DNA of 64,000 nucleotides from an uncultured Desulfosarcina sp. (GCA_963674945.2 CAXXWQ010000002.1:576001-640000), one strand, 5' to 3'. Positions 32,345 through 64,000 are shown, counted from the stretch's first letter. The notes: generated from the letters alone by a model not told the origin. Numbers and translations are program-made.

Positions 32345-32488
32345 TTCCCTCATGTCTCCGTGCCGTCATCCATCCACACCTATACTAGCTTGACCAGATT
32401 CTTCTTTATTGATAGACACTTGCTTGAACTTACGCTGGGCGTCTCAAAATAAAATTGAAACGCACAGTTCCCGTTGGAGAAGAGGTCG

Positions 32489-38046: not shown

Positions 38047-38050
38047 GAGC

Positions 38051-39727: not shown

Positions 39728-39916
39728 CAATGCGTTCGGGCGAGATGATCGTAAGAAAAATGAGCTGAAAAAGAATCAAGACGTCAGGGAGGCAACACCT
39801 AACAAAATTCCAAATCACAAAATAGAAAGAGAATTCAGGAGTCAGAAGTCAGAATCCAGGAGTTGGATTCGCCTTCGGCTCAATCGCCAAACAAAGCTGT
39901 AAATTCAGAATGTTGG

Positions 39917-40048
39917 GTGGAATAACCACCGGCATAAAAATTTCAAGACTTGATTGTATGGCAAAAAACTCATCAATTTGTTCTGGTTGTGCATCGCTAT
40001 AGTGAATCATTCCCTAAACATGAGATTTATGGGCTGACCTCACAATTA
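39917..40048 (+). pseudogene. Four-helix-bundle gene, 5' fragment
   Basis: ...FQDLIVWQKTHQFVLVVHRYSESFPKHEIYGLTSQL, then joined directly to motif R; 5' end degenerate. Confidence 0.85.
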
Positions 40049-40226
40049 TGAAACGAAGCGACAACATAGCCATTCTGAATTCTGACTCCTGGATTCTGGC
40101 TTCTGTAATTTTGGAATTTGGATATTGGTATTTTTCTTCTTCGAATAGCTCTTTCTAATGTTCGACGTTCGATTTTCAGCGTTCATTTTGTGCTTGACGG
40201 TTGGACTTTGTCGAGCTTTTCATCCT

Positions 40227-40303
40227 TAAGCTCTAAGCTCTAAGCTCTAAGCTCTAAGCTCTAAGCTCTAAGCTCTAAGCTCTAAGCTCTAAGCTCTAAG
40301 CTC
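40227..40303. repeat. (TAAGCTC)11 tandem array
   Basis: 77 bp, 11 perfect units counted. Confidence 0.97.
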
Positions 40304-40402
40304 TTGGATTCTGTATTCTGTAGTTTTACCATGACATAATCTACAATTACTGTTATAATTGCAAAAATTCTTGATTAATCTAAAATCCAAATCACATACC
40401 CT

Positions 40403-43093: not shown

Positions 43094-43152
43094 GTGTGGG
43101 GAACAGATGAACGTTGACCATTGAATGTTGTGATCGCAAGCATTTTGACAAG

Positions 43153-43300
43153 AGAATTCAGGAGACGAAAATCAGAATCCAGGAGTCAGAAGTCAGAATC
43201 CAGAATGTGGATTCGCCTTCGGCTCAATCGATTTAAATAACGATGGAGCGAAGCGACAACCTATCTATTCTGGCTTCTGACTCCTGGATTCTGTATTCTG
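43153..43300 (+). repeat. Empty heptamer inverted-repeat element
   Basis: Left arm, TCGCCTTCGGCTCAATCG-ATTTAAATAA-CGATGGAGCGAAGCGA, right arm TTCTGGC TTCTGAC TCCTGGA TTCTGTA TTCTG. Confidence 0.92.
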
Positions 43301-43306
43301 GTTTTT

Positions 43307-44374
43307 ATGCCTCTTTCACCCCGATATCCTTCGATAACTTCGCCTTTCCGTTCCCTGCTTTCCCGATTTTTCGAAACCGTCGCCGGCGGCAAGGGCCTTC
43401 TTCGGCCGCTTTCGGGTCGTGGCGATCTAAGGCCGAAACGTGTCGTGATTCTATCACCGGGCGCAATCCCCACCACGGACATCTACCTCACGAAACGGTT
43501 CCGGGGAAATTTCGTCGATACCGTTCGAACCGTGGATACGCTGCTCCAGCGGCCGGCGGCGGTTGTTGTCGGCGAAACGCCCATCATGATCGTGGTGGTC
43601 CGATACGCTCCGTTGCCATGGCTCAGATGGGTGGCGCGACGCCAGGCGGCAGGTGACTTCGTGGTCTATTTTATGGATGACGACATGCCCATGACCACCC
43701 GTTCACCCGAACTCCCCTTCTCCTATGCCGTGAAAACCGGTTGGCGGTATGCCATGACAAAAAGATCCCTGTGCCGCCATTGCAATGAGATTTGGCTCTC
43801 AACCGCCGCGTTGGCGCGGCGATATCCCGAATCTGCGGCACGGGTCATAGAACCGGTTTTTATGGTTCCCGGAGAAACGAATACCAACGGGCCGGTCTAT
43901 TTTTACCATGGTACCAGGGCGCATCGATGGGAGATGCAATGGCTTGTACCGGTGGTAAAGGCCGTACAGCAGGAGTCTCCCCATGCGTGGTTTGAAATCA
44001 TGGGGAACCATCGGGTCCGGCGACTCTTCAAGGGGATTCCCCGGGTTCGGGTGATTCATCCCATGCCTTGGCCGGATTATCTTGAATACACCGGTTGCTG
44101 CCGTTTTCAGGTCGGTCTGGCACCGTGTATGGATACATCCTTCAACCGGGGACGCTCTCACACGAAGGTATTCGATATCACGCGCATGGGGGCTGCCGGC
44201 ATTTATTCGTCGGGGATTGTCTATGGTAATACGGTGGTTCATGGACAGACCGGCCTTCTATGCAGAAATCACCAAAAAAGATGGGTCGCGGCAATCCTTT
44301 TGTTGTTCGCGGATCCGTCGCTGCGGGATCGCCTGTATCGCGGGGCGCTGGAGTGGTGTGAGGAACGACAGTAA
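43307..44374 (+). CDS. Putative glycosyltransferase (GT-B-like)
   Basis: VVYFMDDD, YHGT..H, VGLAP...FNRGRS.TK, VVHGQTGLL; capsule context. Confidence 0.72.
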   Translation: MPLSPRYPSITSPFRSLLSRFFETVAGGKGLLRPLSGRGDLRPKRVVILSPGAIPTTDIYLTKRFRGNFVDTVRTVDTLLQRPAAVVVGETPIMIVVVRYAPLPWLRWVARRQAAGDFVVYFMDDDMPMTTRSPELPFSYAVKTGWRYAMTKRSLCRHCNEIWLSTAALARRYPESAARVIEPVFMVPGETNTNGPVYFYHGTRAHRWEMQWLVPVVKAVQQESPHAWFEIMGNHRVRRLFKGIPRVRVIHPMPWPDYLEYTGCCRFQVGLAPCMDTSFNRGRSHTKVFDITRMGAAGIYSSGIVYGNTVVHGQTGLLCRNHQKRWVAAILLLFADPSLRDRLYRGALEWCEERQ

Positions 44375-44479
44375 CAAAAAATTCCAATAAACAAATTCCA
44401 AATCACAAATAAATTCCAATGACCAAATAACAAAACAGCAGAATTCAGGAGTCAGAAGTCAGAATCCAGAAGGTGGATT

Positions 44480-44605
44480 AGTTGTATTCAAACCGGGTGC
44501 TTTGCACCCGGAATCACCCCGAACGATGAAAGCACTAACGTGCTTTTGGATATCCGGCCCATGGCCGAATATCCAAGTCACCCGCTTTGCGGGTGATCGT
44601 TGACG
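44480..44605. repeat. 126-bp multi-hairpin insert, copy 1
   Basis: Four hairpins; identical to 55463-55588; absent from the other element copies. Confidence 0.85.
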
Positions 44606-44653
44606 CGCCTTTGGCTCAATCATAAATAAAGAGCTGGAAATCCAGAATGTAGA

Positions 44654-45017
44654 ATGAAACGAGCACCGGCAAAAATTTTCAGGACTTGATTGTATGGCAA
44701 AAAGCGCATCAATTTGTTTTGGCTGTGTATCGCTATAGTGAATCATTCCCTAAGAATGAGATTTATGGGCTGACTTCACAATTGAGAAGATCCGCTGTTT
44801 CAATTCCAGCGAACATCGCAGAAGGATTCAAGAAAAAGACCAGGCCAGACAAGGCAAGGTTTTTAAATATAGCACAGGGCTCCCTTGAAGAGACACGGTA
44901 CTATCTATTTTGGCAGCAGATCTCGGTTATGGTGAAAATGTTGAATTGGCAAACCAACTTCGGGAGATCAGTAAATTGCTGGAAGGTTACCTTTCTTCCA
45001 TTTTGCATTCTGTATAG
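44654..45017 (+). pseudogene. Four-helix-bundle protein (23S rRNA IVS/Avd-like), two frameshifts
   Basis: LIVWQKAH...FPKNEIYGLTSQLRRSAVSIPANIAEG...FLNIAQGSLEETRYY; A5 instead of A6 at 44671 and a 1-nt deletion near 44905. Confidence 0.9.
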
Positions 45018-45060
45018 AGGCAACGGTAATATTCAAATTGAAGGAGCGAAGCGACACCTT

Positions 45061-45249
45061 CTCCTGGCTCCTGGCTCCTGGCTCCTGGCTCCTGGCTCCT
45101 GGCTCCTGGCTCCTGGCTCCTGGCTCCTGGCTCCTGGCTCCTGGCTCCTGGCTCCTGGCTCCTGGCTCCTGGCTCCTGGCTCCTGGCTCCTGGCTCCTGG
45201 CTCCTGGCTCCTGGCTCCTGGCTCCTGGCTCCTGGCTCCTGGCTCCTGG
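45061..45249. repeat. (CTCCTGG)27 tandem array
   Basis: 189 bp, 27 perfect units. Confidence 0.97.
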
Positions 45250-45319
45250 ATTCTGACTCCTGGATTCTGAATTCTACAGTTTTGTGGTTAAAAAAAGTTA
45301 CCTGAAAACACAATCAATC

Positions 45320-47401
45320 ATGGAAAATAATAACAGTCCCACTCCCATCATCGGCACCTTTTCACGGGGGCTTGTTACTAGACGGCACCTCGGCGCCGCA
45401 TTGGGCGGCCGGGTCCTGCGATTGGGAAGGCATAACGACGGTACTGCCCTGTCTGCCGTTGTTGGCTGGGGACGAAAGGACAACACGAATCGGGCAAGGA
45501 GTTTCGCAGCCAACGCCGGTTTGCCGTACATCTGTATCGAAGACGGGTTTATTCGATCCATCGGCCTGGGTGTGAACAATGCACAGCCATTCGGCTTCAT
45601 CGTCGATACATCCGCCATCTACTACGATGCGACCCGGCCATCGGACCTGGAAATCCTCATTCAAAGCAACGGCGAGGGGGGGGGGGACCTTGATCGCGCA
45701 CGCAGGCTCATGGCCCGCATCGTGAAGGAACAGATCTACAAGTACAACCACGTCTGGGACAGCGTTCGTCTGCCACAGACCCGTCGACCACGAATCCTCC
45801 TCATTGACCAGACCCGGGGTGACCTCTCCGTCACGTATGGGATGGCCGGCGCCGACAGCTTCCGGCAAATGCTGGATTCTGCCAGAAAGCGATATCCGGA
45901 TGGCGCCTTTTTCGTCAAGACGCATCCGGACGTCATTGCGGGAAAGAAAAAGGGGTATCTGCTCGATGACCTGCCGGCCGATGTCATGCGAATCGGAGAT
46001 GACTGTAACCCCTACGCCCTGCTCCATCAGGTTGACCACGTCTATACGGTGTCCAGCCAGATGGGATTCGAAGCGCTCCTGGCGGGAAAACCGGTGACAT
46101 GTTTCGGAATGCCCTTCTACGCCGGATGGGGGGTGACGGAGGATCGGGTTCACTGTGCGCGCAGGGGCGTCACCCGTTCCATGGAAGCGCTTTTTGACGC
46201 CGCCTATCTGAAGTACGTTCGATACGTGGATCCGTTGACAGGGGATCCTTGCGAGCTGGAGCAGATTCTCGACAGAATCGTTTTTCACAAACAGGTGGCA
46301 CTGGAAAACAAAGGCAAGGTGTTTTGTTTCGGGTTTCGTTTCTGGAAAAGGGGGATCATCAACCGGTTTCTGGATGCATCCGATGCCGATGTCCGGTTTA
46401 CGAGGCGTCCGGAGACGGCCGAACGGACAGGACTCGATGGCGAGAGTCGCATCGCCGTCTGGGGCCTTCGCAATGATACCGGTGTCATGAAACTGGCCAC
46501 GCGCCATGGGATTCGGGTGGAGCGGATCGAGGACGGGTTTATCCGATCCGTCGGTTTGGGATCCGATTTCGCTCCTCCCTCGTCCCTTATCGTGGATCGT
46601 CGGGGCATCTATTTCGATCCCCGTCGTCCCAGCGAGTTGGAGAACCTTCTCAACACGGTGGTCCTCGATGGAAACGCCAGAAAAGCGGCCCGTCGATTGC
46701 GGCGATCCATCATTGCATTGGGGATGAGCAAATACAACACGGGCTGCAATGAACCGCTGCACGTGGACGCGCAACCGGACCAACCGGTCGTCCTCGTTCC
46801 CGGGCAGGTGGAAGACGATGCCTCCATCCAGGCGGGCTGCGTGGATATTCGGACCAACATCGGCCTCCTCAAAGCGGTCCGCCGCCAATCTCCCGATGCA
46901 TACATCATTTACAAACCCCATCCCGATGTCCTGGCGGGCAATCGTCGCGGGTTCATTCCCAAGGATCGTGCGCTTTCCCATTGTGACAGAATTGTGACAG
47001 ACCGGAATATCATCCAATGTCTGGATCGTGTTGACCAGGTCCATACCCTGACCTCCCTGACGGGGTTCGAGGCGCTGTTACGGGATAAGGCCGTTTTCAC
47101 TTACGGGCGTCCCTTCTATTCCGGATGGGGGCTCACCGTTGACCGTCATCCCTCACCGCGCCGCACACGTAGTTTGACCATAGATGAACTGGTTTATTGC
47201 AGTCTGATTCTTTATCCGCGCTACTACGATTGGGATGCCCGCTGTTTCGTTCAGGCGGAGGATGTCGTCGAAAAACTTCGCAAACAACTGCTCAGCCGCG
47301 ACCTTTCCATCAAACCATCCGTGCACCGGCATCTTCGCCGCAAGGCCCTGTTTCTTATGGAGGATCTGCGCGAGGCAATGGGGACGATACGGATCAAATG
47401 A
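45320..47401 (+). CDS. kpsC: Capsule biosynthesis beta-Kdo transferase KpsC
   Basis: Two homologous domains: GWGRK, IEDGFIRS (twice), KYN (twice), KTHPD/KPHPD, GFEALL, PFY.GWG; start set at ATG 45320. Confidence 0.95.
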   Translation: MENNNSPTPIIGTFSRGLVTRRHLGAALGGRVLRLGRHNDGTALSAVVGWGRKDNTNRARSFAANAGLPYICIEDGFIRSIGLGVNNAQPFGFIVDTSAIYYDATRPSDLEILIQSNGEGGGDLDRARRLMARIVKEQIYKYNHVWDSVRLPQTRRPRILLIDQTRGDLSVTYGMAGADSFRQMLDSARKRYPDGAFFVKTHPDVIAGKKKGYLLDDLPADVMRIGDDCNPYALLHQVDHVYTVSSQMGFEALLAGKPVTCFGMPFYAGWGVTEDRVHCARRGVTRSMEALFDAAYLKYVRYVDPLTGDPCELEQILDRIVFHKQVALENKGKVFCFGFRFWKRGIINRFLDASDADVRFTRRPETAERTGLDGESRIAVWGLRNDTGVMKLATRHGIRVERIEDGFIRSVGLGSDFAPPSSLIVDRRGIYFDPRRPSELENLLNTVVLDGNARKAARRLRRSIIALGMSKYNTGCNEPLHVDAQPDQPVVLVPGQVEDDASIQAGCVDIRTNIGLLKAVRRQSPDAYIIYKPHPDVLAGNRRGFIPKDRALSHCDRIVTDRNIIQCLDRVDQVHTLTSLTGFEALLRDKAVFTYGRPFYSGWGLTVDRHPSPRRTRSLTIDELVYCSLILYPRYYDWDARCFVQAEDVVEKLRKQLLSRDLSIKPSVHRHLRRKALFLMEDLREAMGTIRIK

Positions 47402-47406
47402 TATAT

Positions 47407-47623
47407 AAATCTCAAATCACAAGCAACAAATAGCAAACAAACGCCAAATTTCAATGACCAAACAACAAACGGATCACATAACTAAATATGAAATTTTCAT
47501 CTTACCGATCGGGTTGTTTGGAATTTGAAAAATTGTTTATTGGGATTTGTTTGTGATTTGGAATTTGGTTATTGTGATTTCTTTATAGCGGAGCGCAGCG
47601 ACAGCATAGCCATCCTGGCTCCT
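47407..47623. repeat. CAAAT-family heptamer inverted element plus orphan motif R
   Basis: AAATCTC AAATCAC AAGCAAC AAATAGC AAACAAA ... TTTGTTT GTGATTT GGAATTT GGTTATT GTGATTT, then GGAGCGCAGCGAC...CCTGGCTCCT. Confidence 0.85.
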
Positions 47624-47702
47624 TTTCCCTTGAGGAAGTCGGATCGGATGTGGTAAAGATACCGTTTGGTAATTTTTTATAGAGCAGCGCATTTCCCGAA
47701 AA

Positions 47703-48911
47703 GTGAATGAATGCATGATCGGATCGGTCAAAAATAAAAATTGTCTGCTGCTGCAAGGGCCCATGGGCCCTTTTTTTCGCAAGTTGGACAAGGAACTTCG
47801 CCGCCGCGGCGCAAATGTGCACCGCATCTGCTTCAATGGCGGTGACTTTCTGTATGCCAACAAGGACAATTGCCGCAACTTTACCGGAACCCCGGAGAAA
47901 TGGCCCTTTTTTATTGCCCGTTTCCTGAAAAAACACCGTATCCAAATGATTTTTCTTTACGGGGACTGCCGGTACTATCACAAACAGGCCAAATTGGCTG
48001 CCGCCGGATTGGGTATAGACGTCTATGTGTTCGAAGAGGGGTATGTCCGTCCCAATTTCATCACCCTCGAAAAGGGTGGGGTGAATGCCCACAGCAGCAT
48101 GCCGGCCGAGGCTGACGATTATCGCAACGATACGCCATCAAAACCCGTCGTCCATAACCAGGATGTCGGCAGATACGCTTTTCAGAACTGGACCCTTTGT
48201 ACAATCGCCTACTATGTGGCCATGCGGCTTCTCTTCTGGTACTATCCCGGCTACCGTCATCACCGCGACGATTCCGTTTTAAAGGAAGCCTTTTACGGCA
48301 TTCGAAACGGCTGTCGGAAGATCGCCCACGGCATCGTGGAGCGGAATCTGGCTGCCTTCATATCGACAAAGCTTACCAAACGGTACTTTTTCGTACCCCT
48401 GCAGACCATCGGTGATTTCCAGATCAGCGAATATTCCCCCTTCGTCGATATGAAGGACTTTATCGGGGTCGTGATGCGATCATTCGCCGTCCATGCGCCC
48501 AAAGATCTGTTTTTAATCATCAAGCACCATCCCTTGGACCGGGGGCGTGTCAACTACAATGCCCATATCCGAAAGGCCGCCAAAAGCCTGGGCATCGCCG
48601 ACCGTGTCCTCTCCATCCATGACGTGCATCTTCCCACCTGCCTGATGCATGCCATTGGAACGGTTACCGTCAACAGTACCGTGGGAATCGCCTCCCTGTT
48701 TCACGAAACGCCGACAATCGTATTGGGAAAGGCACTTTACGATATTGACGGGCTCACCTGCAAGGGAATGGCCCTTGAGCGATTCTGGACCCGGTGCCGA
48801 ACTCCCGAAAAGCAGCTGTTCAACCGTTTTCGAGCCCGCCTCATCGAACAGACCCAGTGCAAGGGGTCTTTCTACAGTGGCTTTCCCGGAACTCTTTTTA
48901 AAAGCGTATGA
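47703..48911 (+). CDS. kpsS: Capsule biosynthesis beta-Kdo transferase KpsS
   Basis: LLLQGPMGPFF, FNGGD, GDCR, FEEGYVRP, VPLQ..D.Q, KHHPLDRG, VNSTVG. Confidence 0.95.
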   Translation: MNECMIGSVKNKNCLLLQGPMGPFFRKLDKELRRRGANVHRICFNGGDFLYANKDNCRNFTGTPEKWPFFIARFLKKHRIQMIFLYGDCRYYHKQAKLAAAGLGIDVYVFEEGYVRPNFITLEKGGVNAHSSMPAEADDYRNDTPSKPVVHNQDVGRYAFQNWTLCTIAYYVAMRLLFWYYPGYRHHRDDSVLKEAFYGIRNGCRKIAHGIVERNLAAFISTKLTKRYFFVPLQTIGDFQISEYSPFVDMKDFIGVVMRSFAVHAPKDLFLIIKHHPLDRGRVNYNAHIRKAAKSLGIADRVLSIHDVHLPTCLMHAIGTVTVNSTVGIASLFHETPTIVLGKALYDIDGLTCKGMALERFWTRCRTPEKQLFNRFRARLIEQTQCKGSFYSGFPGTLFKSV

Positions 48912-51457
48912 ACACAAACCAGAGAAACGAGGAAACCGGCCGCGACACCGACGAACAAAAACGGCGGTTGGATCTCTATGAACGAAAAATCCGCGAACTG
49001 CAAGCCCAGGTCTCTCATGTTGAGACATTATCCGATACCATCTCCCGTAAAGAAGAGGAGATTTCCTACCTGAAAGGGCTCGTTCAGGATCAGGCCAATA
49101 CCATTGACGCCCTTCGAAATGGGCTCTTGTGGCGATCCACACTGCCATTTCGGCGATTGGGGAAAAAGGTTCGGCGACTTGTTTTCAAAAAGGATGGATT
49201 CGAAACCAACGACTGGATTTCCGCGGGCCGGGTGGCATTCAAACTCACCGCCGTCCACGAGCTGGAAGTGGATATCTCCTTGCGGAACCACTGGCGATCA
49301 TTGGGGGATGACCCCCATTTCCATTTGACGCCCCATCGCGCAAGGTCCTTTCGCGGGTGGTACATGGTCGAAGTCGCGGTCACCGGATCGTTGCCCCATG
49401 CGCTGGCCCGTTTCTATTTCGACGCCGGCAACGGCTATTCAGAGCGCCGAAGTATTGCGATTCCCTATCGTAACGGACAACTCACCAAACGGCTCTGCTG
49501 GTTCGATACATCACCCGTTGGCATTCGTTTCGATCCCATGGATTGCAAGGGATCTTTTCGAATCGACCATCTCGATTTCGTCAAGGTGCCCGGTTGGTTC
49601 GCCGTCAATCGAATGCTTCGGAAAATCCGGGCGACCAACGACGCGTATCTGGGAAAAAACCTGTCCGAGATTCGACAGGGGATCCAGCAGCAGGCCAGGG
49701 AAGAAGGGATTTCTTTTACCGAGGCCGTCAACAAGTTATATTCCCAATATTTTAAAGCCTCTACCAGAAGTTACGAGCAGTGGATCGAAACCGTCGAGGA
49801 ACCGGTATTTTCTGACTTCGTCGCCATTGAGAAAAGCATCGAAGGTTTTCGGCAAAAGCCCCTGATTTCGGTGATTGTACCGGTATACAACACCCGGCCA
49901 AGGCTCCTTCGCCGATGCATCGAATCGGTCATCGGACAGTCCTACTCCCACTGGGAGCTTTGCATCGCAGACGATGCCTCCACGGATGCCGCCATCGGCG
50001 AGATATTGTTATCCTATGCCCAACGCGATGCACGCATCAAGGTCGTGAGAAGACGGGAAAACGGGCACATCAGCGCGGCCTCGAACAGTGCCTTGCGATT
50101 GGCAACCGGTGACTTCATTGCCTTGCTCGATCACGATGATGAATTGGCCGAGCATGCCTTTTTTTTCGTAGCCAGGGCCGTCAATGAAAATCCCCGGACA
50201 AAAATCATCTACACGGATGAGGACAAGATCGACGAGAGCGGTCGCCGAAGCGATCCCCACTTCAAATCCGATTGGAACCCGGATCTTCTTTTTTCCCAGA
50301 ATTACATTTCTCATCTGGGCGTCTACCATCGGGATGTGGTCAATGCGGTCGGGGGGTTTCGTTTGGGCGTCGAAGGCAGTCAGGACTATGATTTTCTGTT
50401 GAGATGCGCCGCATCGGCGGATGGCGACGAGATCGTTCATATTCCCCTCGTGCTGTATCACTGGCGGACCGTCGAAGGGTCGACGGCCCAGGCCGCCCAT
50501 GAAAAAAGCTATACCACGGAAGCGGGCATCAAGGCGCTGGAGCACATCATTCCGATTCATCAATGGGATGCGGATGTGACACAAGGGATGCTGCCCAACA
50601 CATATCGGGTGATCCATCGCATCGCCGATCCGGAACCGCTGGTTACCCTGATCATCCCCACCCGCGATGGATTCGAGGTTCTTTCCCGCTGCATTTCGAG
50701 TATCCGGGAAAAGACCACTTATGGTAACTATGAGATCCTGATCGTGGACAACCAGAGCCGGGACCCCGAGACCCTCGATTATCTGCAGGCGATACAGGAT
50801 GGTGAAAAAATCCGGGTCGTCTCCTTCGATCACCCCTTTAATTTTTCGGCCATCAATAACTACGGAGCAAAACAGGCACGGGGAGATGTGCTCGGGTTGC
50901 TCAATAACGATATCGAAGTGATTACCCCGGATTGGCTGACGGAGATGGTCTCCCAGGCACTTCGGCCGAAAAGGGGGTGTGTGGGCGCCAAGCTGTACTA
51001 TCCGGACGGCAGAATCCAGCACGCCGGCGTGATTCTGGGCATCGGCGGCGTGGCCGGACACTCCCACAAATACTTCAACAAGTCCAGCCCGGGCTATTTC
51101 AGTCGTCTGATGCTGATTCAGAATGTATCCGCGGTGACCGCCGCCTGCCTGGTCGTTCGAAAAAAGATCTACCAGCAGGTCGACGGCCTGGACGAAAAGA
51201 ACCTTACCGTGGCATTCAACGATGTGGATTTTTGTTTAAAGGTACGCATGGCCGGGTACAAAAACGTGTGGACCCCTTACGCCGAGCTGGTGCATCACGA
51301 ATCCGTGAGCCGCGGTGTGGAAGATTCCACCGACAAAATTGAACGCTTCAATCGCGAAACCCGCTTCATGAAAGAGAAATGGAACGCGGTGCTTTCGTGC
51401 GATCCCTATTACAGCCCGCATCTTTCCATGGAGAAGGAGGATTTTTCCATTGGGTGA
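48908..51457 (+). CDS. Glycosyltransferase with two GT2 domains
   Basis: N-terminal coiled coil; ISVIVPVYNT, ADDAST, LLDHDD, YTDED, GSQDYD; second domain IIPTRD, LLNNDIE, VTAAC, FNDVDFCL. Confidence 0.93.
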   Translation: MNTNQRNEETGRDTDEQKRRLDLYERKIRELQAQVSHVETLSDTISRKEEEISYLKGLVQDQANTIDALRNGLLWRSTLPFRRLGKKVRRLVFKKDGFETNDWISAGRVAFKLTAVHELEVDISLRNHWRSLGDDPHFHLTPHRARSFRGWYMVEVAVTGSLPHALARFYFDAGNGYSERRSIAIPYRNGQLTKRLCWFDTSPVGIRFDPMDCKGSFRIDHLDFVKVPGWFAVNRMLRKIRATNDAYLGKNLSEIRQGIQQQAREEGISFTEAVNKLYSQYFKASTRSYEQWIETVEEPVFSDFVAIEKSIEGFRQKPLISVIVPVYNTRPRLLRRCIESVIGQSYSHWELCIADDASTDAAIGEILLSYAQRDARIKVVRRRENGHISAASNSALRLATGDFIALLDHDDELAEHAFFFVARAVNENPRTKIIYTDEDKIDESGRRSDPHFKSDWNPDLLFSQNYISHLGVYHRDVVNAVGGFRLGVEGSQDYDFLLRCAASADGDEIVHIPLVLYHWRTVEGSTAQAAHEKSYTTEAGIKALEHIIPIHQWDADVTQGMLPNTYRVIHRIADPEPLVTLIIPTRDGFEVLSRCISSIREKTTYGNYEILIVDNQSRDPETLDYLQAIQDGEKIRVVSFDHPFNFSAINNYGAKQARGDVLGLLNNDIEVITPDWLTEMVSQALRPKRGCVGAKLYYPDGRIQHAGVILGIGGVAGHSHKYFNKSSPGYFSRLMLIQNVSAVTAACLVVRKKIYQQVDGLDEKNLTVAFNDVDFCLKVRMAGYKNVWTPYAELVHHESVSRGVEDSTDKIERFNRETRFMKEKWNAVLSCDPYYSPHLSMEKEDFSIG

Positions 51458-51467
51458 CAGGAAAACC

Positions 51468-51839
51468 AGAATACAGGAGTCAGGAGTCAGAATCCAGAAG
51501 TTGGATTTGCCTTCGGCTCAATCATAAAAATGAGTTGGGGATCCATACGTTAGAATGAAACGACCACCGGCAAAAAATTTTCAAGACTTGATTGTGTGGC
51601 AAAAAGCGCATCAATTTGTTTTGGCTGTGTATCGCTATGGTAAAAATGTTGAATTGACAAATCAACTCCAGGATGTCAGCAAATTTTTGGAAGGTGACCT
51701 TTCTTCCATTTTGCAAACAGAAAATAGGTAATGCTAATATTTATATTAATAGATGGAGCGAAGCGACAACATCGCCATTCTGACTCCTGACTCCTGACTT
51801 CTGGATTCTGAATTCTGTATTTTTGTGATTTGGAATTTA
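51468..51839 (+). mobile_element. Heptamer element carrying an internally deleted four-helix-bundle gene
   Basis: Five-heptamer left arm, motif L, gene, motif R, right arm TTCTGAC TCCTGAC TCCTGAC TTCTGGA TTCTGAA TTCTGTA. Confidence 0.85.
51555..51731 (+). pseudogene. Four-helix-bundle gene with in-frame internal deletion (58 aa)
   Basis: MKRPPAKNFQDLIVWQKAHQFVLAVYRY fused to GKNVELTNQLQDVSKFLEGDLSSILQTENR*. Confidence 0.88.
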
Positions 51840-51886
51840 TATATGAGCTTAGCAACACATTCTCCTGGTTCTTCACGGTTTTGATA

Positions 51887-52894
51887 ATGCTTCCCATGAT
51901 CTTCATCCATATTCCAAAGACCGCCGGAACGAGCTTTCGACTCGGTGCCAGGGCCTATTTCGGCCCCGAATATGAGATCAAGGATTATGGACCCAGAGTG
52001 GAAGCCACTTCACCCATGGTAAGAAAAATCATTTACCAACAAAACGATTTCGAACGATTTCGAAAGGTCATCGATAATCGTGAAATCAAATTTGTCACGG
52101 GACATTTCCCATCGGAAAAATATCTGGCATACTTCGATATGGGCACATTTGTCACGTTCGTCAGAGACCCGGTGCAACGGGTGGTCTCGGAGTACAAACA
52201 CGCGGTGCGGGTCAACGGATTCAACGGTACGCTCCGTGAATTTTGCCGACGACCGCGCAATATCAACCGGCAGTGGGAGGCCGTTCGGGTCATCGGGATT
52301 GAAAACATGGCCTTCGTCGGCCTCACGGAACAATACGAAACATCACTTTCTGCCATCAACGCCATCTTCGGTACCGATATCATGGCGTTGAAGAAAAATA
52401 TCGGTAAGGAGACGTTGCATGAACAGCATCCTATCGATCCGCCGGATGTCGATTTCATCAAAACCCTGAACCATGCCGATGTGGCGCTTTACGAAGAGGT
52501 AACGGATCGTTTTACAAAAGCCGATAAACCATTTTCCGTTGTCTGCAGGGATGACCAGTATAAAGGAAATGTCGGCGGGATAAGGGACGGGAAAATCTTT
52601 GGGTGGGCGGTAAACGAGACACGGGAGGCCCCCGTCGTTCTCAATATCCTGATCAATGGCGAAATGGTGGCAGAGGTCATCGCCAATCGGTATCGGCCGC
52701 ACTTGAAGGACGTGGGAATCACACGTTCCGGCTGCGCCGGCGTTCTCTTCGACCTCGGAAGCCGATCCGTGCGCAGCGGTGACATCATCGCCTTTCAGGT
52801 CGTAAAAACCGGGCAGGTGCTGGGAACCCGGCGCGTCACGGCGGAGATGGTCGAAGGGGGAAAGAACATTGAACGTCCTACATCGAACAATTAA
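51887..52894 (+). CDS. Sulfotransferase-family protein
   Basis: FIHIPKTAGTS (5'-PSB-like), FVRDPVQRVVSEY (3'-PB-like), FVGLTE; C-terminal GWA...R..L...G domain; start ATG 51887 or 51896. Confidence 0.85.
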   Translation: MLPMIFIHIPKTAGTSFRLGARAYFGPEYEIKDYGPRVEATSPMVRKIIYQQNDFERFRKVIDNREIKFVTGHFPSEKYLAYFDMGTFVTFVRDPVQRVVSEYKHAVRVNGFNGTLREFCRRPRNINRQWEAVRVIGIENMAFVGLTEQYETSLSAINAIFGTDIMALKKNIGKETLHEQHPIDPPDVDFIKTLNHADVALYEEVTDRFTKADKPFSVVCRDDQYKGNVGGIRDGKIFGWAVNETREAPVVLNILINGEMVAEVIANRYRPHLKDVGITRSGCAGVLFDLGSRSVRSGDIIAFQVVKTGQVLGTRRVTAEMVEGGKNIERPTSNN

Positions 52895-52934
52895 CTACAA
52901 CTCCCAATGGCTAAATTCCAAACCATGAATGAAA

Positions 52935-53174
52935 AGAATTCAGGAGTCAGGAGTCAGAATCCAGAAGTCGGATCCGCCTTCGGCGCATCCGAAAAAAGGT
53001 AACCAAAGAGGACACAAAAGAGTACAGAGAACGAATCAAATTGTAGTTCTCTGTGTACTCTACTGCTCTCTGTAGTGAATAACGCATTGCCTGAAAAGGC
53101 AGGTGTCTTTACATTAGAAAGAGCGAAGCGATAACAACGCCATTCTGACTACTGACTCCTGGATTCTGGCTTCT
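52935..53174 (+). repeat. Heptamer element with nested 9-mer element
   Basis: Five-heptamer arm, CGCCTTCGGCGCA, ACCAAAGAG GACACAAAA GAGTACAGAG ... CTCTGTGTA...CTCTCTGTAG, GAGCGAAGCGA, right arm. Confidence 0.88.
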
Positions 53175-53195
53175 TTCGTTTCGAAATGAAATATT

Positions 53196-54146
53196 ATGAC
53201 GAAAAACATAGAACCACTGATCAATACCGGTATCCATCTTTTAAACCCGGATGATGAACGCGCGCATCAACCGCGAAAAACCATCATCGTCTCCGGGGTG
53301 GCGCGAAGCGGAACTTCCCTGGTGGCCGGAGTCCTTTCAAAGTTGGGCGTCTTTTTGGGAGATACCGCATGTCCCCCGGTCTATGAGGATACGGAACTCG
53401 GTCGTGCCATGGAAAACCGGGAACTCGCGGCGGCCAAGGCGATTATCGGCCGATACGATGAAAAACACGCGATTTGGGGATGGAAGCGACCGTCTTCCAT
53501 CGGGTATCTTGATGAGGTCGACGCGGTTTTCTCCAATCCCATTTACGTTTTTATTTTCAAGGATATTTTTTCCATAGCAAAACGAAACGAGATCTCCATG
53601 CATGCGGATCTGATAAAAAATATGCGAAGCGTCTATAAACAACAGGGAAAAATCATCGACTTCATCGAGGAAAGAAATCCCGTTGCCATGCTTGTCGCAT
53701 ATGATAAGGCATTGGTGGAGAAGGATCGATTCGTCCGCGCCCTTTGTGAATTGGCCGGAATCGAGGCGTCGGCCGACCAATTCAATGCCGCCGTGGAATT
53801 TATCACACCCAATCCGCCCGACTACCTGGATGCATCCCGGATCACCAAGGCAAGAGGGAGCGTGGGGATGATAAAGGAAAATTGCGTGGTGGGTTGGGCC
53901 CGGGCGGTTTACAATGACACGCCCATTCATGTAGAATTGTATGTGAATGAAAGACTTGTCGCCGTAACGATGGCCAATCTTCTTCGAGAGAATCTCGTGG
54001 AAAAGGGCCTTCACCCCACCGGTCATGCGGGATTTCGTTTCGACCTCGATGAAGACACGAAACTTCAAAAAGGGGACGTCATACGGGTACGCGCGGAAAA
54101 CGAGGTGAATGACCTTGGCAATTGTCCGTTGGTGTTTGGGGAATAA
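53196..54146 (+). CDS. Sulfotransferase-like P-loop protein
   Basis: IIVSGVARSGTSLVA, WGWKRP; C-terminal domain homologous to that of 51887-52894. Confidence 0.7.
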   Translation: MTKNIEPLINTGIHLLNPDDERAHQPRKTIIVSGVARSGTSLVAGVLSKLGVFLGDTACPPVYEDTELGRAMENRELAAAKAIIGRYDEKHAIWGWKRPSSIGYLDEVDAVFSNPIYVFIFKDIFSIAKRNEISMHADLIKNMRSVYKQQGKIIDFIEERNPVAMLVAYDKALVEKDRFVRALCELAGIEASADQFNAAVEFITPNPPDYLDASRITKARGSVGMIKENCVVGWARAVYNDTPIHVELYVNERLVAVTMANLLRENLVEKGLHPTGHAGFRFDLDEDTKLQKGDVIRVRAENEVNDLGNCPLVFGE

Positions 54147-54153
54147 AAAAAAG

Positions 54154-54238
54154 GGAATTCAGTAGTCAGGAGTCAGAATCCAGAATGTGGATTTGCCTTC
54201 GGCTCATTCGATCAATAAACAGCAAGAAACCACAGAGA
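54154..54238 (+). repeat. Left half of heptamer element
   Basis: GGAATTC AGTAGTC AGGAGTC AGAATCC AGAAT, GGATTTGCCTTCGGCTCA, one ACCACAGAG unit; no right arm before gmd. Confidence 0.8.
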
Positions 54239-54270
54239 TAAGTCACCAACAAAATAGCGGGGATAACCAA

Positions 54271-55359
54271 ATGAAAAAAAAATGTGCATTGATCACCGGT
54301 GTTACAGGACAAGATGGCGCCTATCTTGCCGAGTTTCTGCTGGGAAAGGGCTACGAGGTGCATGGGCTCAAACGGCGAACCTCGCTGATTAATACCGATC
54401 GAATCGATCACCTTTATCAGGACCCCCACGAAGAAGACCGGAGTTTTATTTTACATTACGGGGATCTGACCGATTCCTCCAGCCTGATCCATGTGATCGA
54501 AAAGGTCAAACCCGACGAAATTTACAACCTGGCTGCCCAGTCCCATGTGGCGGTTTCCTTTGAAGAGCCGGAATATACGGCCAATGCGGACGGCATCGGT
54601 GCATTACGGATCCTGGAAGCCATTCGGATCTTGGGCCTGACGAAAAAAACGAGGTTCTATCAGGCCTCCACTTCCGAGCTTTACGGACTCGTACAGGAAA
54701 TTCCCCAAACCGAGAAAACCCCCTTTTACCCCCGATCACCCTATGCGGTGGCCAAACTATACGCCTATTGGATAACGGTAAATTATCGGGAGGCCTATGA
54801 CATCTACGCATGCAACGGCATCCTGTTCAATCATGAGTCGCCCATTCGCGGGGAGACCTTTGTTACCCGGAAAATCACCCGAGGACTGGCCCGGATCAAG
54901 GCCGGGCTTCACGATTGTTTGTATATCGGAAATTTGAATGCGAAACGGGATTGGGGGCATGCAAAGGATTACGTGGAGATGCAGTGGCTTATGCTGCAGC
55001 AGGAAAAGGCCGCGGATTTCGTGATCGCGACCGGTGAGCAGCACAGCGTGCGGGAATTCATCTCGGTTGCCGCCGACCAGTTGGATATGTCCATCACCTG
55101 GGAAGGTGCCGGACCCGATGAGAAGGGATTTGATGAAAAGGGGCGGTGCATCGTTCGCGTCGATCCACGATATTTCCGCCCCACGGAGGTGGAGACGCTT
55201 CTGGGGGATGCGACGAAGGCGAAAGAGAAGTTGGGATGGACCCCCAAAATAACCTTCAAGGAGATGGTCGAAGAGATGGTGGCGGAGGATCTCAAAACCG
55301 CACAGCGGGACGAACTGGTCATGCGGCATGGGTTTCAGATCCACAATCATCATGAATAG
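54271..55359 (+). CDS. gmd: GDP-mannose 4,6-dehydratase
   Basis: [57 protein letters not shown]; start ATG 54271. Confidence 0.98.
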
Positions 55360-55462
55360 GGTGGCAGAATCAGAAGGTCGAACAATTAAATACAAATTCC
55401 AATATCCAAATAACAAAACAGCAGAATTCAGGAGTCAGAAGTCAGAATCCAGAAGGTGGATT

Positions 55463-55588
55463 AGTTGTATTCAAACCGGGTGCTTTGCACCCGGAATCAC
55501 CCCGAACGATGAAAGCACTAACGTGCTTTTGGATATCCGGCCCATGGCCGAATATCCAAGTCACCCGCTTTGCGGGTGATCGTTGACG
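55463..55588. repeat. 126-bp multi-hairpin insert, copy 2
   Basis: Identical to 44480-44605. Confidence 0.85.
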
Positions 55589-55636
55589 CTCCTTTGGCTC
55601 AATCATAAATAAAGAGCTGGAAATCCAGAATGTAGA

Positions 55637-56001
55637 ATGAAACGAGCACCGGCAAAAATTTTCAGGACTTGATTGTTTGGCAAAAAGCGCATCGATTCGT
55701 ATTAGGTATGTATTGCTATACTGAATCATTTCCTAAAAGTGAGATTTATGGTTTGACATCACAATTGAGAAGATCATCCGTATCCATTCCAGCTAATATT
55801 GCAGAAGGCTTTAAAAAAAAGACGGTGCCTGATAAGGCAAAGTTTATGAACATAGCGCAAGGTTCTCTTGAAGAGACACGGTACTATCTCATTTTGGCGG
55901 CGGATCTTGGTTATGGTGAAAATGTTGAATTGACGAAGCAACTTCGGGAGGTCAGTAAATTGTTGGAAGGTTACCTTTCTTCTATTTTGCATTCTGTATA
56001 G
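55637..56001 (+). CDS. Four-helix-bundle protein (23S rRNA IVS/Avd-like); ATG out of frame by one base
   Basis: Open from TTG 55669: IVWQKAH...EIYGLTSQLRRSSVSIPANIAEG...IAQGSLEETRYYLILAADLGY. ATG 55637 is disconnected by A5 versus A6 at 55654, so this may be a pseudogene. Confidence 0.8.
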
Positions 56002-56044
56002 AGGCAACGGTAATATTCAAATTGAAGGAGCGAAGCGACACCTT

Positions 56045-56324
56045 CTCCTGGCTCCTGGCTCCTGGCTCCTGGCTCCTGGCTCCTGGCTCCTGGCTCCTGG
56101 CTCCTGGCTCCTGGCTCCTGGCTCCTGGCTCCTGGCTCCTGGCTCCTGGCTCCTGGCTCCTGGCTCCTGGCTCCTGGCTCCTGGCTCCTGGCTCCTGGCT
56201 CCTGGCTCCTGGCTCCTGGCTCCTGGCTCCTGGCTCCTGGCTCCTGGCTCCTGGCTCCTGGCTCCTGGCTCCTGGCTCCTGGCTCCTGGCTCCTGGCTCC
56301 TGGCTCCTGGCTCCTGGCTCCTGG
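56045..56324. repeat. (CTCCTGG)40 tandem array
   Basis: 280 bp, 40 perfect units plus a partial unit. Confidence 0.97.
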
Positions 56325-56384
56325 CTCCTCTCGTTTGTCTTTCTTGTAGTGGAAAACCATTACTCGACAAGGTAAGGTTCAACT

Positions 56385-57548
56385 ATGCAAAAAAACAGCA
56401 AGATCTACGTCGCCGGCCACAGGGGGCTCGTGGGATCGGCACTCATGCGAACGCTTCAAGCGCAGGGATATGGTAATATCGTCACCCGCACCCATGCCGA
56501 ACTGGATTTATGCGATCAAGCCGCCGTTCGAGATTTTTTCCAACAGGAGCAACCGGAATATGTCTTCCTTGCCGCGGCCAAGGTCGGCGGCATCTGGGCG
56601 AACAACACCTTTCCGGCGGAATTCCTCTATCAGAATATCAGCATCCAGAGCAATGTCATCCATTTTGCGAAACAAACCGGAGTTCGTCGTCTCCTGTTTC
56701 TCGGCTCCTCCTGCATTTACCCCCGCGATTGTCCCCAGCCGATGAAGGAGTCGTACCTGTTGACCGGACCGCTGGAATCAACCAATCGGCCCTATGCGGT
56801 GGCGAAGATCGCCGGTATCGAGATGTGCTGGTCGTACAATCGGCAATATGGAACGAAATACCTGGCCGTGATGCCGACAAACCTTTACGGTCCCAACGAT
56901 AGCTATGATCTGACAAATTCCCATGTGCTGCCCGCATTGATACGAAAGATTCACCTGGCGAAGCTGGCGAAAAATGGGGATCTGGAGGGGATTCGACAAG
57001 ACAGGGACCGAAGAGGGGATATACCCGTAGACGTGTTGCAAACCATCGGCGTTTCCGAAGATCTCTCGGCTTCCATCTCCGATGATGTGAAACTCGTCGT
57101 GTGGGGCACCGGATCTCCAAAGAGAGAGTTTTTGTACAGCGACGATATGGCCAGGGCGAGCCTGTTTCTGATGTCCCTTCCCGACAAGGAATTTGACAAT
57201 CTGGTAAGGGCCGAAGCGCTTCCGCTGATCAACATCGGGTGTGGCTATGATCTGACGATCAGAAAACTGGCTGAAACGATCCAGGACGTGCTCGGTTTTT
57301 CCGGGGAAATCATCTGGGACAAGAACAAGCCGGATGGTACGCCCCAAAAGCTATTGGATGTCGGCAACCTCTTTTCCCTGGGATGGAAACCAACCGTAAA
57401 TCTCGAAGCGGGCATCGCGGCGGCGTATGAGGATTACCTGAACGAAAGAATTCAGGAGCCGGAAGTCGGAATCCGGAAATCGCGGGTTTTATCGCCACAG
57501 ACACACACAGACGCACACAGACGAAATAGAGCCGATTCCAATTTTTAG
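56385..57548 (+). CDS. fcl: GDP-L-fucose synthase
   Basis: IYVAGHRGLVGSA, AAAKVGGI, LGSSCIYP, YAVAK, PTNLYGP, SHVLPAL, VWGTG, KPDGTP; the last 33 aa come from repeat sequence. Confidence 0.96.
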   Translation: MQKNSKIYVAGHRGLVGSALMRTLQAQGYGNIVTRTHAELDLCDQAAVRDFFQQEQPEYVFLAAAKVGGIWANNTFPAEFLYQNISIQSNVIHFAKQTGVRRLLFLGSSCIYPRDCPQPMKESYLLTGPLESTNRPYAVAKIAGIEMCWSYNRQYGTKYLAVMPTNLYGPNDSYDLTNSHVLPALIRKIHLAKLAKNGDLEGIRQDRDRRGDIPVDVLQTIGVSEDLSASISDDVKLVVWGTGSPKREFLYSDDMARASLFLMSLPDKEFDNLVRAEALPLINIGCGYDLTIRKLAETIQDVLGFSGEIIWDKNKPDGTPQKLLDVGNLFSLGWKPTVNLEAGIAAAYEDYLNERIQEPEVGIRKSRVLSPQTHTDAHRRNRADSNF

Positions 57549-57718
57549 CTCATTACACATCACTCATTACTGATCACTGATTTTTCCTCCGCGTCTCAGC
57601 GTGCTCGAGCAAAGCGGGCGAGAAAAAGATCAGCGAAGCGACAACTTCGCCATTCTGACTCCTGGCTTCTGCAGTTGCAGTTCTCTGTGGTGAATAACGA
57701 ATTACCTGAAAAGGCAGG
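57447..57718 (+). repeat. Heptamer element with 10-mer and TCAT/TGAT-heptamer cargo
   Basis: AGAATTC AGGAGCC GGAAGTC GGAATCC GGAAA ... AGCGAAGCGACAAC...TTCTGAC TCCTGGC TTCTG, then a 9-mer-element right end. Confidence 0.78.
57492..57604 (+). repeat. 113-bp direct repeat, left copy
   Basis: Identical to 58375-58487. Confidence 0.95.
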
Positions 57719-57729
57719 AACAATTAAAC

Positions 57730-57764
57730 TTGATAGTACTAAAAAATGTACTATAATACGTACA
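57730..57764 (+). promoter_or_regulatory. Toxin-antitoxin promoter with palindromic operator
   Basis: TTGATA-N16-TATAAT; TGTAC-N8-GTACA brackets the -10 box. Confidence 0.7.
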
Positions 57765-57789
57765 AAATAAACATGCATGCGGGTGCAAT

Positions 57790-58071
57790 ATGCAAAGAAT
57801 AAAAATTGATCAGGATATTAAGCCCTTGTCGGAAGTTAGGACCGGAATTGCAAACTTCATAAAACAAGTTCATGATACAAAACGCCCATTGGTCATTACA
57901 CAGCATGGAAAAGGCGTGGCCGTGCTAATCGATGTTCATGAATATGAAGCGATCCAAAATCGGCTTGAGCTTTTGACAGATATCCAGTTAGGGCTGAACC
58001 AGATTGAAAACGGACAAGGAATCGATCAAGAAAATGCAAAGCAGATGGTTATCCAGCGAGCCTTACAATGA
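57790..58071 (+). CDS. Phd/YefM-family antitoxin
   Basis: DIKPLSEVR...KRPLVITQHGKGVAVLIDVHEYE; overlaps the toxin start. Confidence 0.92.
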   Translation: MQRIKIDQDIKPLSEVRTGIANFIKQVHDTKRPLVITQHGKGVAVLIDVHEYEAIQNRLELLTDIQLGLNQIENGQGIDQENAKQMVIQRALQ

Positions 58072-58364
58072 AAATTGTATGGTCTCCTCTTGCGATAGAG
58101 CGGACTTCAGAAATCGCGGGTTTTATTGCCAGAGACAAACCATCCGCTGCAGAAGAATGGATCGATACCGTTTTTCTGAAGGTCGAACAGCTATTGGACT
58201 CACCTGAGATCGGTAGGATTGTGCCCGAAATAAACAACAAGCAGTTTCGAGAGATAATTTATGGTAACTATCGAATTATTTATCGTGTCGAAATAAAGCG
58301 GATTTCAATTCTTACGATCCAACATGGGAACCAGATATTACCAATAAAGGAAATCTTGACATAA
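58068..58364 (+). CDS. RelE/ParE-family toxin
   Basis: MKIVWSPLA...IAGFIARDKPSAA...PEIGRIVPE...REIIYGNYRIIYR...ILTIQHG. Confidence 0.92.
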   Translation: MKIVWSPLAIERTSEIAGFIARDKPSAAEEWIDTVFLKVEQLLDSPEIGRIVPEINNKQFREIIYGNYRIIYRVEIKRISILTIQHGNQILPIKEILT

Positions 58365-58374
58365 CAACATCTTT

Positions 58375-58487
58375 TCGCCACAGACACACACAGACGCACA
58401 CAGACGAAATAGAGCCGATTCCAATTTTTAGCTCATTACACATCACTCATTACTGATCACTGATTTTTCCTCCGCGTCTCAGCGTGC
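58375..58487 (+). repeat. 113-bp direct repeat, right copy
   Basis: Identical to 57492-57604. Confidence 0.95.
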
Positions 58488-58549
58488 AAAATTATATCAT
58501 AATTGTAATTATGCATTGCATTGTTACAAATTCATTGTATGATAGCACC

Positions 58550-59731: not shown

Positions 59732-59742
59732 TTTGGTTCCTT

Positions 59743-60108: not shown

Positions 60109-60165
60109 TTGGTAATTGGCGCCTGTTTTCTGACATCTTATAACTATTTTTTGAGATCTAAATTC

Positions 60166-63147: not shown

Positions 63148-63171
63148 ATGACACAGAGAGCATAGAGAAAG

Positions 63172-63630
63172 ATGACTTCCAAATACGAAAATGAAATAAA
63201 AAAAATCGAAGAATCCGGCCTGTTTGACCCCGTTTGGTATCAAGCCGAATACCCCGATACACAATTTCTCAACATGACCCCCATCGAACACTATTTATGG
63301 CTGGGTGCAACATTGGGGCGCAATCCCTCTCCGAAATTCGATGTCGCCTTTTATTTAAAATCCTATCCGGAGGCAGCCAATTCCGGCATTAATCCATTGC
63401 TCTATTTCATTGAAAAGGGAAGGGCAGCAGGACACGAAACGGTTTCACCTGATGAAAAAGAAGAGAAAGAGTCGACTTATAAATCAGTTGATCTCCTTAT
63501 TGAGGAAGAAGAATTAAGGGAAGAAAATGAATTATTATTGCTCCAACTTCATCAGGTCCAGGAGGAACTGGAAACCTATTATCTGAAGTATCAGGAGCTG
63601 AAGAATCGTGTGGAAGAGAAGGAAGGGTGA
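63172..63630 (+). CDS. Small protein with YPD/YPE repeats and coiled-coil tail
   Basis: SGLFDPVWYQAEYPD...PIEHY...GRNPSPKFD..FYL..YP; tail ENELLLLQLHQVQEELETYY. Confidence 0.8.
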   Translation: MTSKYENEIKKIEESGLFDPVWYQAEYPDTQFLNMTPIEHYLWLGATLGRNPSPKFDVAFYLKSYPEAANSGINPLLYFIEKGRAAGHETVSPDEKEEKESTYKSVDLLIEEEELREENELLLLQLHQVQEELETYYLKYQELKNRVEEKEG

Positions 63631-63637
63631 AGAAAGA

Positions 63638-64000
63638 GAACGTCGAACATCGAACGTCCAACATCGAATATCGGATGATGTGGGTGCAAGCATACTGGGA
63701 GAGAATCCAGGAGTCAGGAGTCAGAATTCAGAATGTGGATTCACCTTCGGCTCAATCATAAAAATGAGTTGGGGATCCATACGTTAGAGTGAAACGACCA
63801 CCGGCAAAAAATTTTCAAGACTTGATTGTGTGGCAAAAAGCGCATCAATTTGTTTTGGCTGTGTATCGCTATAGTGAATCGTTCCCTAAGAATGAGATTT
63901 ATGGGTTGACCTCACAATTGAGAAGATCCGCTGTTTCAATCCCAGCGGACATTACAGAAGGCTTCAAGAAAAAGACGAAGCCTGACAAGGCAAGGTTTTT
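63638..64000 (+). mobile_element. Heptamer element, left part, running off the window
   Basis: GAACGTC GAACATC GAACGTC CAACATC GAATATC arm, five-heptamer arm at 63702, motif L, gene start. Confidence 0.85.
63789..64000 (+). CDS. Four-helix-bundle protein, open to the window end
   Basis: GTG start, KRPPAKNFQDLIVWQKAHQFVLAVYRYSESFPKNEIYGLTSQLRRSAVSIPADITEGFKKKTKPDKARF; A6 keeps the frame. Confidence 0.85.
   Translation, partial: MKRPPAKNFQDLIVWQKAHQFVLAVYRYSESFPKNEIYGLTSQLRRSAVSIPADITEGFKKKTKPDKARF

Follow-up and report, generated by a model that had tools for sequence, protein, structure and literature searches.

The window, i.e., the whole stretch of DNA analysed here (64,000 nt; G000:C2:576001-640000, where G000 is the genome studied, an assembly of four contigs), contains a kps-type capsule locus from position 34682 onward, and many gaps between its genes hold repeats that share one scaffold: an arm of heptamers (AG[AG]ANNC), a motif L, a loop, a motif R and a reverse-complement arm (Table 1). 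The overlapping junctions among the kps export genes are free of it; of the 13 non-overlapping junctions from kpsD on, ten hold the scaffold or part of it and seven the complete succession from arm to arm, in agreement with the initial annotation, which had described almost every such junction as occupied. L is present nine times and R eight times, compared to means of 0.00 and 0.13 in shuffled sequence, and triple AG[AG]ANNC arm units number 92 compared to 0 in shuffles, all three being far above chance; the scaffolds lie at the coordinates given in that annotation. The loop contents it gave (nothing at 43153, a 9-mer element at 52935, 26175 and 34103) were recovered as well. Read contigs are identical to the assembly over 51719-55435 and 55647-56013; joints seen in DNA read contigs over 45290-56045 most probably stem from further copies of the repeats, in this genome or in the community, and are not taken as excision. 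An Rfam scan gave no match anywhere in the window.

Pure heptamer expansions, with lengths taken from the assembly, lie directly upstream of kpsC (GGCTCCT x26, 45066-45247), of fcl (GGCTCCT x40, 56050-56329) and of a glycosyltransferase gene (AGCTCTA x10, 40229-40298), and are candidates for length variation. Between 26411 and 31265, the + strand ORFs have no Pfam match, and the gene caller favours three long - strand genes (26471-31103).

Table 1. Scaffolds, inserted elements and selected genes of the window (positions counted from its first nucleotide).
Feature	Position	Strand	Remarks
Gene-less arm-L-R-arm scaffold, murF-mraY junction	13569..13690	-	in 1/26 measurable genus relatives
Scaffold, left arm carrying an inserted 67-bp hairpin element	25102..25306	+	67-bp element: 5 genome copies
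Scaffold, 9-mer-armed hairpin element within L-R loop	26175..26405	+	
Composite: reversed scaffold, AAATTCC-type heptamer arms, second R	32135..32345	.	
Degenerate scaffold with 9-mer element	34103..34310	+	upstream of kps genes
kps export genes: cytidylyltransferase, ABC-2 permease, ATPase, KpsE-like, KpsD-like	34682..39727	+	
Scaffold with start-less, internally deleted four-helix-bundle remnant	39830..40104	+	remnant ~39917-40049
Gene-less scaffold: arm, L 43209, 18-bp loop, R 43245, arm	43153..43299	+	one long predicted hairpin, z = -8.7
Scaffold, split L, frameshifted four-helix-bundle gene, R 45043	44440..45275	+	gene 44654-45017; right arm of 30 units
126-bp multi-hairpin element within L	44479..44604	+	3' of TGGAT, no target duplication; likely IS200/IS605-type PATE
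kpsC-kpsS junction: AAATTCC-type heptamer hairpin, R, short arm	47401..47625	+	no L
Scaffold with in-frame-deleted four-helix-bundle mini-ORF	51468..51816	+	mini-ORF 51555-51731, 58 aa
Scaffold, 9-mer element in loop	52935..53174	+	
Scaffold, left half only	54154..54240	+	upstream of gmd
gmd-fcl junction: scaffold, split L, four-helix-bundle gene, R 56027	55423..56329	+	gene 55637-56001; (GGCTCCT)40 arm
126-bp element, second copy, inside L	55462..55587	+	
Arm and R-like remnant; yefM-parE between direct repeats	57447..58487	+	yefM-parE 57790-58364; repeats 57492-57604, 58375-58487
Scaffold with sole full-length four-helix-bundle gene	63702..64000	+	GTG start 63789; gene end G000:C2:640157

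The repeats are real, and they form three layers rather than a single unit: a gene with its heptamer arms, an L-R hairpin, and carriers. The pile-up in the capsule locus is made of an undescribed class of cassette, a hairpin found mainly at the level of the genus, and miniature transposons of known kinds. The scaffold is not specific to the capsule locus, since about 79 sites are spread across the genome (one duplicate removed; the script missed some window copies). Likewise, its orientation was said to be always that of the operon, which is true within the capsule operon and fails elsewhere: the scaffolds at 13569 and 32157-32208 are reversed, and dispersed copies are mostly antisense (34 against the gene direction compared to 11 with it in tandem gene context).

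The cargo gene belongs to PF05635/TIGR02436, as the initial annotation stated, with TIGR02436 scores of 118 and 115 bits (curated cut-off 24) and a PF05635 score of 119 bits (cut-off 33.8). Of the five four-helix-bundle genes claimed for the window, all are of this family and a single one, at 63789, has its full length, encoding 122 aa from its GTG start with the sequence NIAEG changed to DITEG and ending beyond the window. The copy at 39917 has lost its start codon and a large internal part, the one at 51555 is reduced to 58 aa by an in-frame deletion, and those at 44654 and 55637 lose the frame 11 codons past ATG, the former a second time further on; from a TTG at 55669, 110 aa would be possible in the latter. 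Nine of the ten four-helix-bundle hits in the genome lie within or beside two polysaccharide-gene regions, and most other glycosyltransferase clusters of G000 contain none. A four-helix-bundle gene is interrupted by a larger insertion at G000:C2:360382-362363 and likewise in another genome (G010:C1:5252192, locus L054); the former insertion looks like a copy of the IS at C4:2277100-2278740. The only GxxExxY (PF13366) gene of G000 (C2:376509-376850, L062) sits amid inverted 9/10-mer arrays, which are related to the repeats beside yefM-parE.

Conservation of the innermost layer was assessed in 80 close homologues of the cargo gene (65-86% identity), 77 of which have sufficient flanking sequence. 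A left arm was found at 62 of these, a right arm at 62 and both at 58, throughout of the same heptamer type, compared to 0/75 and 0/66 in control windows, which supports the proposed association of arms and gene across genomes. L is found beside one of the 77 and R beside none; the three closest homologues in the genus carry their arms directly on the gene and have neither motif. The unit proposed initially, which comprised gene, arms, L and R, is thus supported for gene and arms and not supported for L and R. The homologues bear 16 phylum labels, an internal stop is present in 2/80, and median dN/dS is 0.125 (55 pairs); judging from these sequences, purifying selection acts on the four-helix-bundle genes. 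Different heptamers accompany the other paralogues of G000 and its relatives, so that the arm type tracks the protein clade. In 25/80 homologues the start codon emerges straight from the arm, and the left and right arms of one cassette share unit variants above chance (0.229 vs 0.134). Open branches in a quick protein tree (43 of 77 inner ones) are the reason why it was not used to name donors. Two MAGs with different phylum labels contain the same protein with near-identical flanks (L115, L116), reflecting either bin contamination or very recent transfer.

The genes next to these homologues are varied (cas4-cas1, mutase-meaB, hom-lysC, ABC transporters and similar) and, according to crude ORF calls, co-directional with them in 67/75 cases upstream and 66/77 downstream. 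Of 152 neighbours, 90 were scanned against Pfam after thinning by hand of near-duplicates and apparent shadow ORFs; among the 66 that were annotated there is no glycosyltransferase, nucleotide-sugar epimerase or capsule exporter, which gives no support to a capsule-specific role of the cassette. Three homologous cassettes (L145, L160, L121) adjoin cas1 in CRISPR operons, in at least one locus within the cas4-cas1 gap. The target duplication sought at the arm borders of 57 cassettes was not seen, since permuted pairs gave direct repeats of equal length, and no target motif was found at the cassette borders.

The second layer is a wrapper: L and R form an imperfect inverted pair and lengthen the stem of the arms. 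The scaffold was matched in 18/24 genus relatives and weakly in 3/16 other genomes of the order, and the exact R-plus-arm pattern in 0/400 other genomes of the phylum. Among 74 non-duplicate metagenome matches, many of them from few samples, L lies at most 35 bp from R in 57, and the four-helix-bundle gene is present within 1.5 kb upstream in none, which does not support the view that the empty form is simply a gene-less derivative of the gene cassette. The gene-less hairpin of arm, L, loop, R and arm is rather the usual form of the wrapper, mainly in this genus. A search of viral sequences gave four pattern matches, none with the gene. Scaffold sites between divergent genes are rare (3/69). 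In G000 the L-R loop contains nothing, the gene, the 9-mer element or an AAATTCC-type element, and the most economical sequence of events starts from a hairpin lacking the gene, into whose loop other armed elements were taken up. Alternatively, the gene might have been deleted from a filled ancestral L-R unit, for which deletion intermediates exist at 39917 and 51555. Small dispersed repeats have reportedly been described within cyanobacterial heptamer tracts, which may bear on the L/R layer.

Outside the window, the conserved flanks of scaffold sites match both ends of an IS200 tnpA element (C4:213568-213999), as well as the ends of related IS200 elements across the order (E to 2e-11): a left-flank profile finds the upstream end of 17/22 tnpA loci at E < 0.01, and the right-flank profile finds downstream ends with a best E of 8e-11. 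Such IS200-type ends are present at 57/67 scaffold sites outside the window, at none of the 12 sites detected inside, and at 37/57 metagenome scaffolds. Spread without a transposase, as the initial annotation had considered, is thus not supported for the dispersed empty copies, which these ends flank. Three copies of one IS (in G162) set the borders at TTTAG on the left and TTTAC/T on the right, with no terminal inverted repeat; those of the dispersed MITE of about 270 bp (TTTAN and TTTAC) are looser. Besides the tnpA element itself, this miniature family occupies about 84 dispersed sites. Its one intact tnpA in G000 has ends that are related, not identical, to those of the MITE, whose copies are old (68% pairwise identity), some having lost their core through internal deletion; among 12 genus loci checked for arms, no IS200 carries both tnpA and a heptamer scaffold. 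PATEs are gene-less derivatives of IS200/IS605 elements according to PMC7290912, and insertion at the template of the lagging strand is described for IS200/IS605 in PMC5027513. The orientation of the scaffold sites fits the latter: 55/75 lie on the leading strand, as deduced from local GC skew in the four-contig assembly, compared to 501/879 sampled genes (p = 0.005 against the gene bias). In addition, 28 of 54 MITE right ends, placed by profile-anchored distances because direct mapping is imprecise, fall within a 16-base window around the stop codon of a gene pointing toward them, presumably since a TAA in antisense frequently provides the TTTA target. Where the right end of such a miniature is the stop codon of the converging gene, insertion would restore the stop.

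Two other families of miniature elements accompany the hairpins. The 126-bp element, which splits L in the cassettes at both 44654 and 55637, has 59 copies in G000, 36 of them near-full, with a (T)TGAT-like left flank, GTTGAC at the right end and no duplication, and 28/42 are on the leading strand. Its asymmetric hairpin ends, fixed left target and lack of duplication are those of a PATE, and it is likely a second family of the IS200/IS605 type. A second carrier encloses five of the 80 homologous cassettes (L132, L133, L135, L143, L153) between GTAACTAYTCAG inverted ends with 8-bp flanking repeats, of which 7/8 bases are equal in three. The same ends have perfect 8-bp duplications in another genome (G161, loci L330-L335), and no transposase was recognised by eye between them in the loci inspected. 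We take this combination of ends and 8-bp duplication to indicate an IS66-type MITE, as a putative family label. It carries four-helix-bundle cassettes as well as 9-mer elements, and gene-less examples exist (L138/L314). Four of the five enclosed cassettes form one branch that spans four phylum labels. Most homologues, however, have no recognisable carrier ends.

Comparison of orthologous junctions bears out the expectation that sites differ by presence and absence, as seen at gmd-fcl, GT-sulfotransferase, fcl-orf1048 and murF-mraY; the relatives are too distant for exact insertion borders. Elsewhere in the family, gmd immediately precedes fcl at 22 of 24 fcl loci, and none of these 22 junctions contains the four-helix-bundle gene; the closest, in G058, retains a decayed arm and L. 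In this relative (G058:C29), the same six genes are found in the same order, GT-sulfotransferase-orf316-gmd-fcl-orf1048, and the repeats are almost absent: the GT-sulfotransferase gap is empty at about 14 bp compared to 373 bp in G000, and the fcl-orf1048 gap measures about 42 bp compared to 2.4 kb, yefM-parE and the following AAA_14/DUF4143 gene being missing from it. The kpsC-kpsS gap is short and empty in the one comparable relative. At murF-mraY (28 loci, two dropped as unmeasurable), the scaffold is shared by one of 26 relatives; another has an insert of unrelated sequence, and the gaps of the remaining 24 are short.

Within the capsule locus, the cassette at 44440 is a mosaic: its two flanks, with insert and frameshift, correspond to the cassette at 55423, and most of the coding part corresponds to the one at 63702. 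The coding parts in the window differ by a dS of 0.4-1.07 at a dN of 0.02-0.07, which suggests that diverged functional alleles were shuffled within common wrappers and died recently. Since the window cassettes have no IS200 ends, it is this mosaicism that points to local spread by recombination. The yefM-parE pair is bracketed by two direct repeats, identical and about 113 bp long, that consist of 9-mer and heptamer units; such a bracketing is the footprint expected from a circle integrating by recombination. Period-7 tracts peak in the capsule locus, with 22 per 50 kb compared to a mean of 1.8; the second-highest density is found at G000:C3:2.05-2.10 Mb (17 per 50 kb). Enrichment of heptamers and gene at polysaccharide regions is real in G000 and is not a family-wide trait.

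The explanation that we favour, and consider somewhat better than even, is that these are nested selfish hairpins, probably multiplied by riding along with the ends of transposons and by recombination of their shared repeats, and not for the benefit of the capsule. The dispersed copies would owe their distant spread in time to an IS200-family TnpA acting in trans; a single entry of the gene into the L-R loop might have taken place in this lineage, after which arm-to-arm recombination might have copied the composite of gene and wrapper between junctions. The four-helix-bundle protein could bind its own arm repeats and thereby aid insertion. Such elements are likely to last only in gaps between genes, where nothing is broken, and cutting of mRNA stems by RNase III may occur as a side effect. 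Several observations count against this explanation: the lack of IS200 ends on the window's own cassettes, the age of the MITE copies, the ends of the intact tnpA element, which are related and not identical to those of the MITE, and the absence of target duplication or motif at the cassette borders, which leaves it without a primary insertion step. Purifying selection and co-orientation with the operon also fit a host-useful, a self-mobilising or an mRNA-intervening role.

A self-mobilising role is the strongest of the alternatives. The gene with its arms might be an autonomous, transposase-free element, whose product, an Avd-like pentamer, binds the heptamers and recruits a reverse transcriptase or host enzyme to operon junctions, the carriers being incidental. 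That the arm sequence follows the protein clade and not the host, that a selected gene occupies many different insertion sites across phyla, that many start codons emerge straight out of the arm and that most homologues lack carrier ends would all be expected. The DGR Avd model (NF033474), however, scores 26 and 23 bits, under its cut-off of 80; no reverse transcriptase is found beside the cassettes, the three hits in G000 being distant (C3:2.19 Mb and C4:1.50 Mb), duplication or conversion has affected dead copies no less readily than live ones, and the literature consulted, including PMC4990558 and PMC10053308, describes no enzymatic activity for the family. We therefore regard an autonomous element as unlikely. 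In a bolder version, to which we assign a slightly better, still low chance, the genes with their clade-specific inverted arms would represent a cross-phylum, transposase-free mobile class: the Avd-like pentamer would bind the repeats of its own cassette in single-stranded nucleic acid and steer new copies to operon junctions and to the loops of other hairpins, and piled copies would then serve as a recombination platform by which capsule loci are remodelled. If true, this would jointly explain heptamer repeats, ORF-bearing rRNA intervening sequences and an orphan protein family.

The second alternative places the function in RNA: the cassettes could be mRNA intervening sequences, kept because RNase III cutting of their stems segments or tunes the capsule transcript. 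Long stems are predicted for the folded arms (z = -6.6 and -8.7), and terminal complementarity encloses the ORF with a mean stem of 28 bp in 62 homologues; co-direction in the operon and the sharing of unit variants between arms would also be in line with this. In the Coxiella burnetii rRNA intervening sequence (PMC4990558), the same gene is preceded by heptamers and enclosed by a 28-bp stem that is cut by RNase III. By analogy, stem cutting is plausible here as a side effect. The cassettes, by contrast, lie outside rRNA genes with protein genes as neighbours, and an excess of G·U over A·C pairs is absent from gene-cassette arms (n = 62; 59 vs 52, p = 0.57), from dispersed copies and from IS-free metagenome scaffolds, leaving selection at the RNA level unsupported; of five sets, only the metagenome scaffolds in IS200 ends have such an excess (39 vs 17, p = 0.005), and a few related genomes dominate it. 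Moreover, at the orthologous capsule junctions G058 has nothing or a decayed remnant, the dispersed copies run mostly against the neighbouring genes, and most other glycosyltransferase clusters of G000 do without the gene, all of which makes a retained mRNA function quite improbable. Finally, the junction repeats might be a domesticated, integron-like recombination platform by which capsule modules are added, lost and swapped, as the period-7 peak, the mosaic cassettes, the repeat-bounded yefM-parE and the clustering of gene hits at two polysaccharide regions could suggest, which we consider very doubtful since G058 keeps its gene order though nearly repeat-free, cassettes elsewhere lie outside polysaccharide loci and no recombinase gene was recognised in the capsule locus.

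The evidence ties together two common and unexplained features of bacterial genomes, TIGR02436 proteins and heptamer repeats, in one unit, which can now be separated from the layers that carry it; the carriers are the new contribution. Miniature elements of the IS200 and TIR types can move such hairpins and genes, apparently between phyla, and a capsule operon can gather ten or more nested elements with its gene order unchanged. A literature search of main texts found no paper in which genes of this family are connected with inverted heptamer arms inside mRNA operons, and the four-helix-bundle domain is called functionally uncharacterised in a preprint (bioRxiv 2024.02.27.582315).

Each layer has a counterpart among known systems. 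The cargo protein is closest in sequence to the XCC0516 pentamer (PDB 2GSC, E 3e-21) and has a weak match to DGR Avd, from which it differs by its score under the cut-off and the lack of an adjacent reverse transcriptase. Like REP dimers or REPINs (PMC3733652), L and R mirror each other imperfectly across a loop of about 20 bp, lie between genes and are rare where these diverge; unlike REPINs, they have heptamer arms and no GTAG/CGTC tag, and a RAYT is not supported as their mover, none of the L, R or arm sites listed being near the RAYT-like gene (C3:1.896 Mb). The element of about 270 bp resembles the IS200/IS605 PATEs (PMC7290912, PMC5027513) in its left and right hairpin ends, TTTAN/TTTAC borders, missing terminal inverted repeat and leading-strand bias, and the 126-bp element behaves like a PATE, too; the difference is that the copies in the capsule locus are without IS200 ends and that elsewhere a heptamer hairpin rides as passenger in the place of tnpA. 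The gene cassette itself resembles the ORF-bearing 23S rRNA intervening sequence (S23p/PF05635) of Coxiella burnetii (PMC4990558), with which it shares the protein family, heptamers before the start, an ORF in decay and complementary termini that give a stem of about 28 bp, whereas here it lies between mRNA genes, in many copies and inside a second hairpin.
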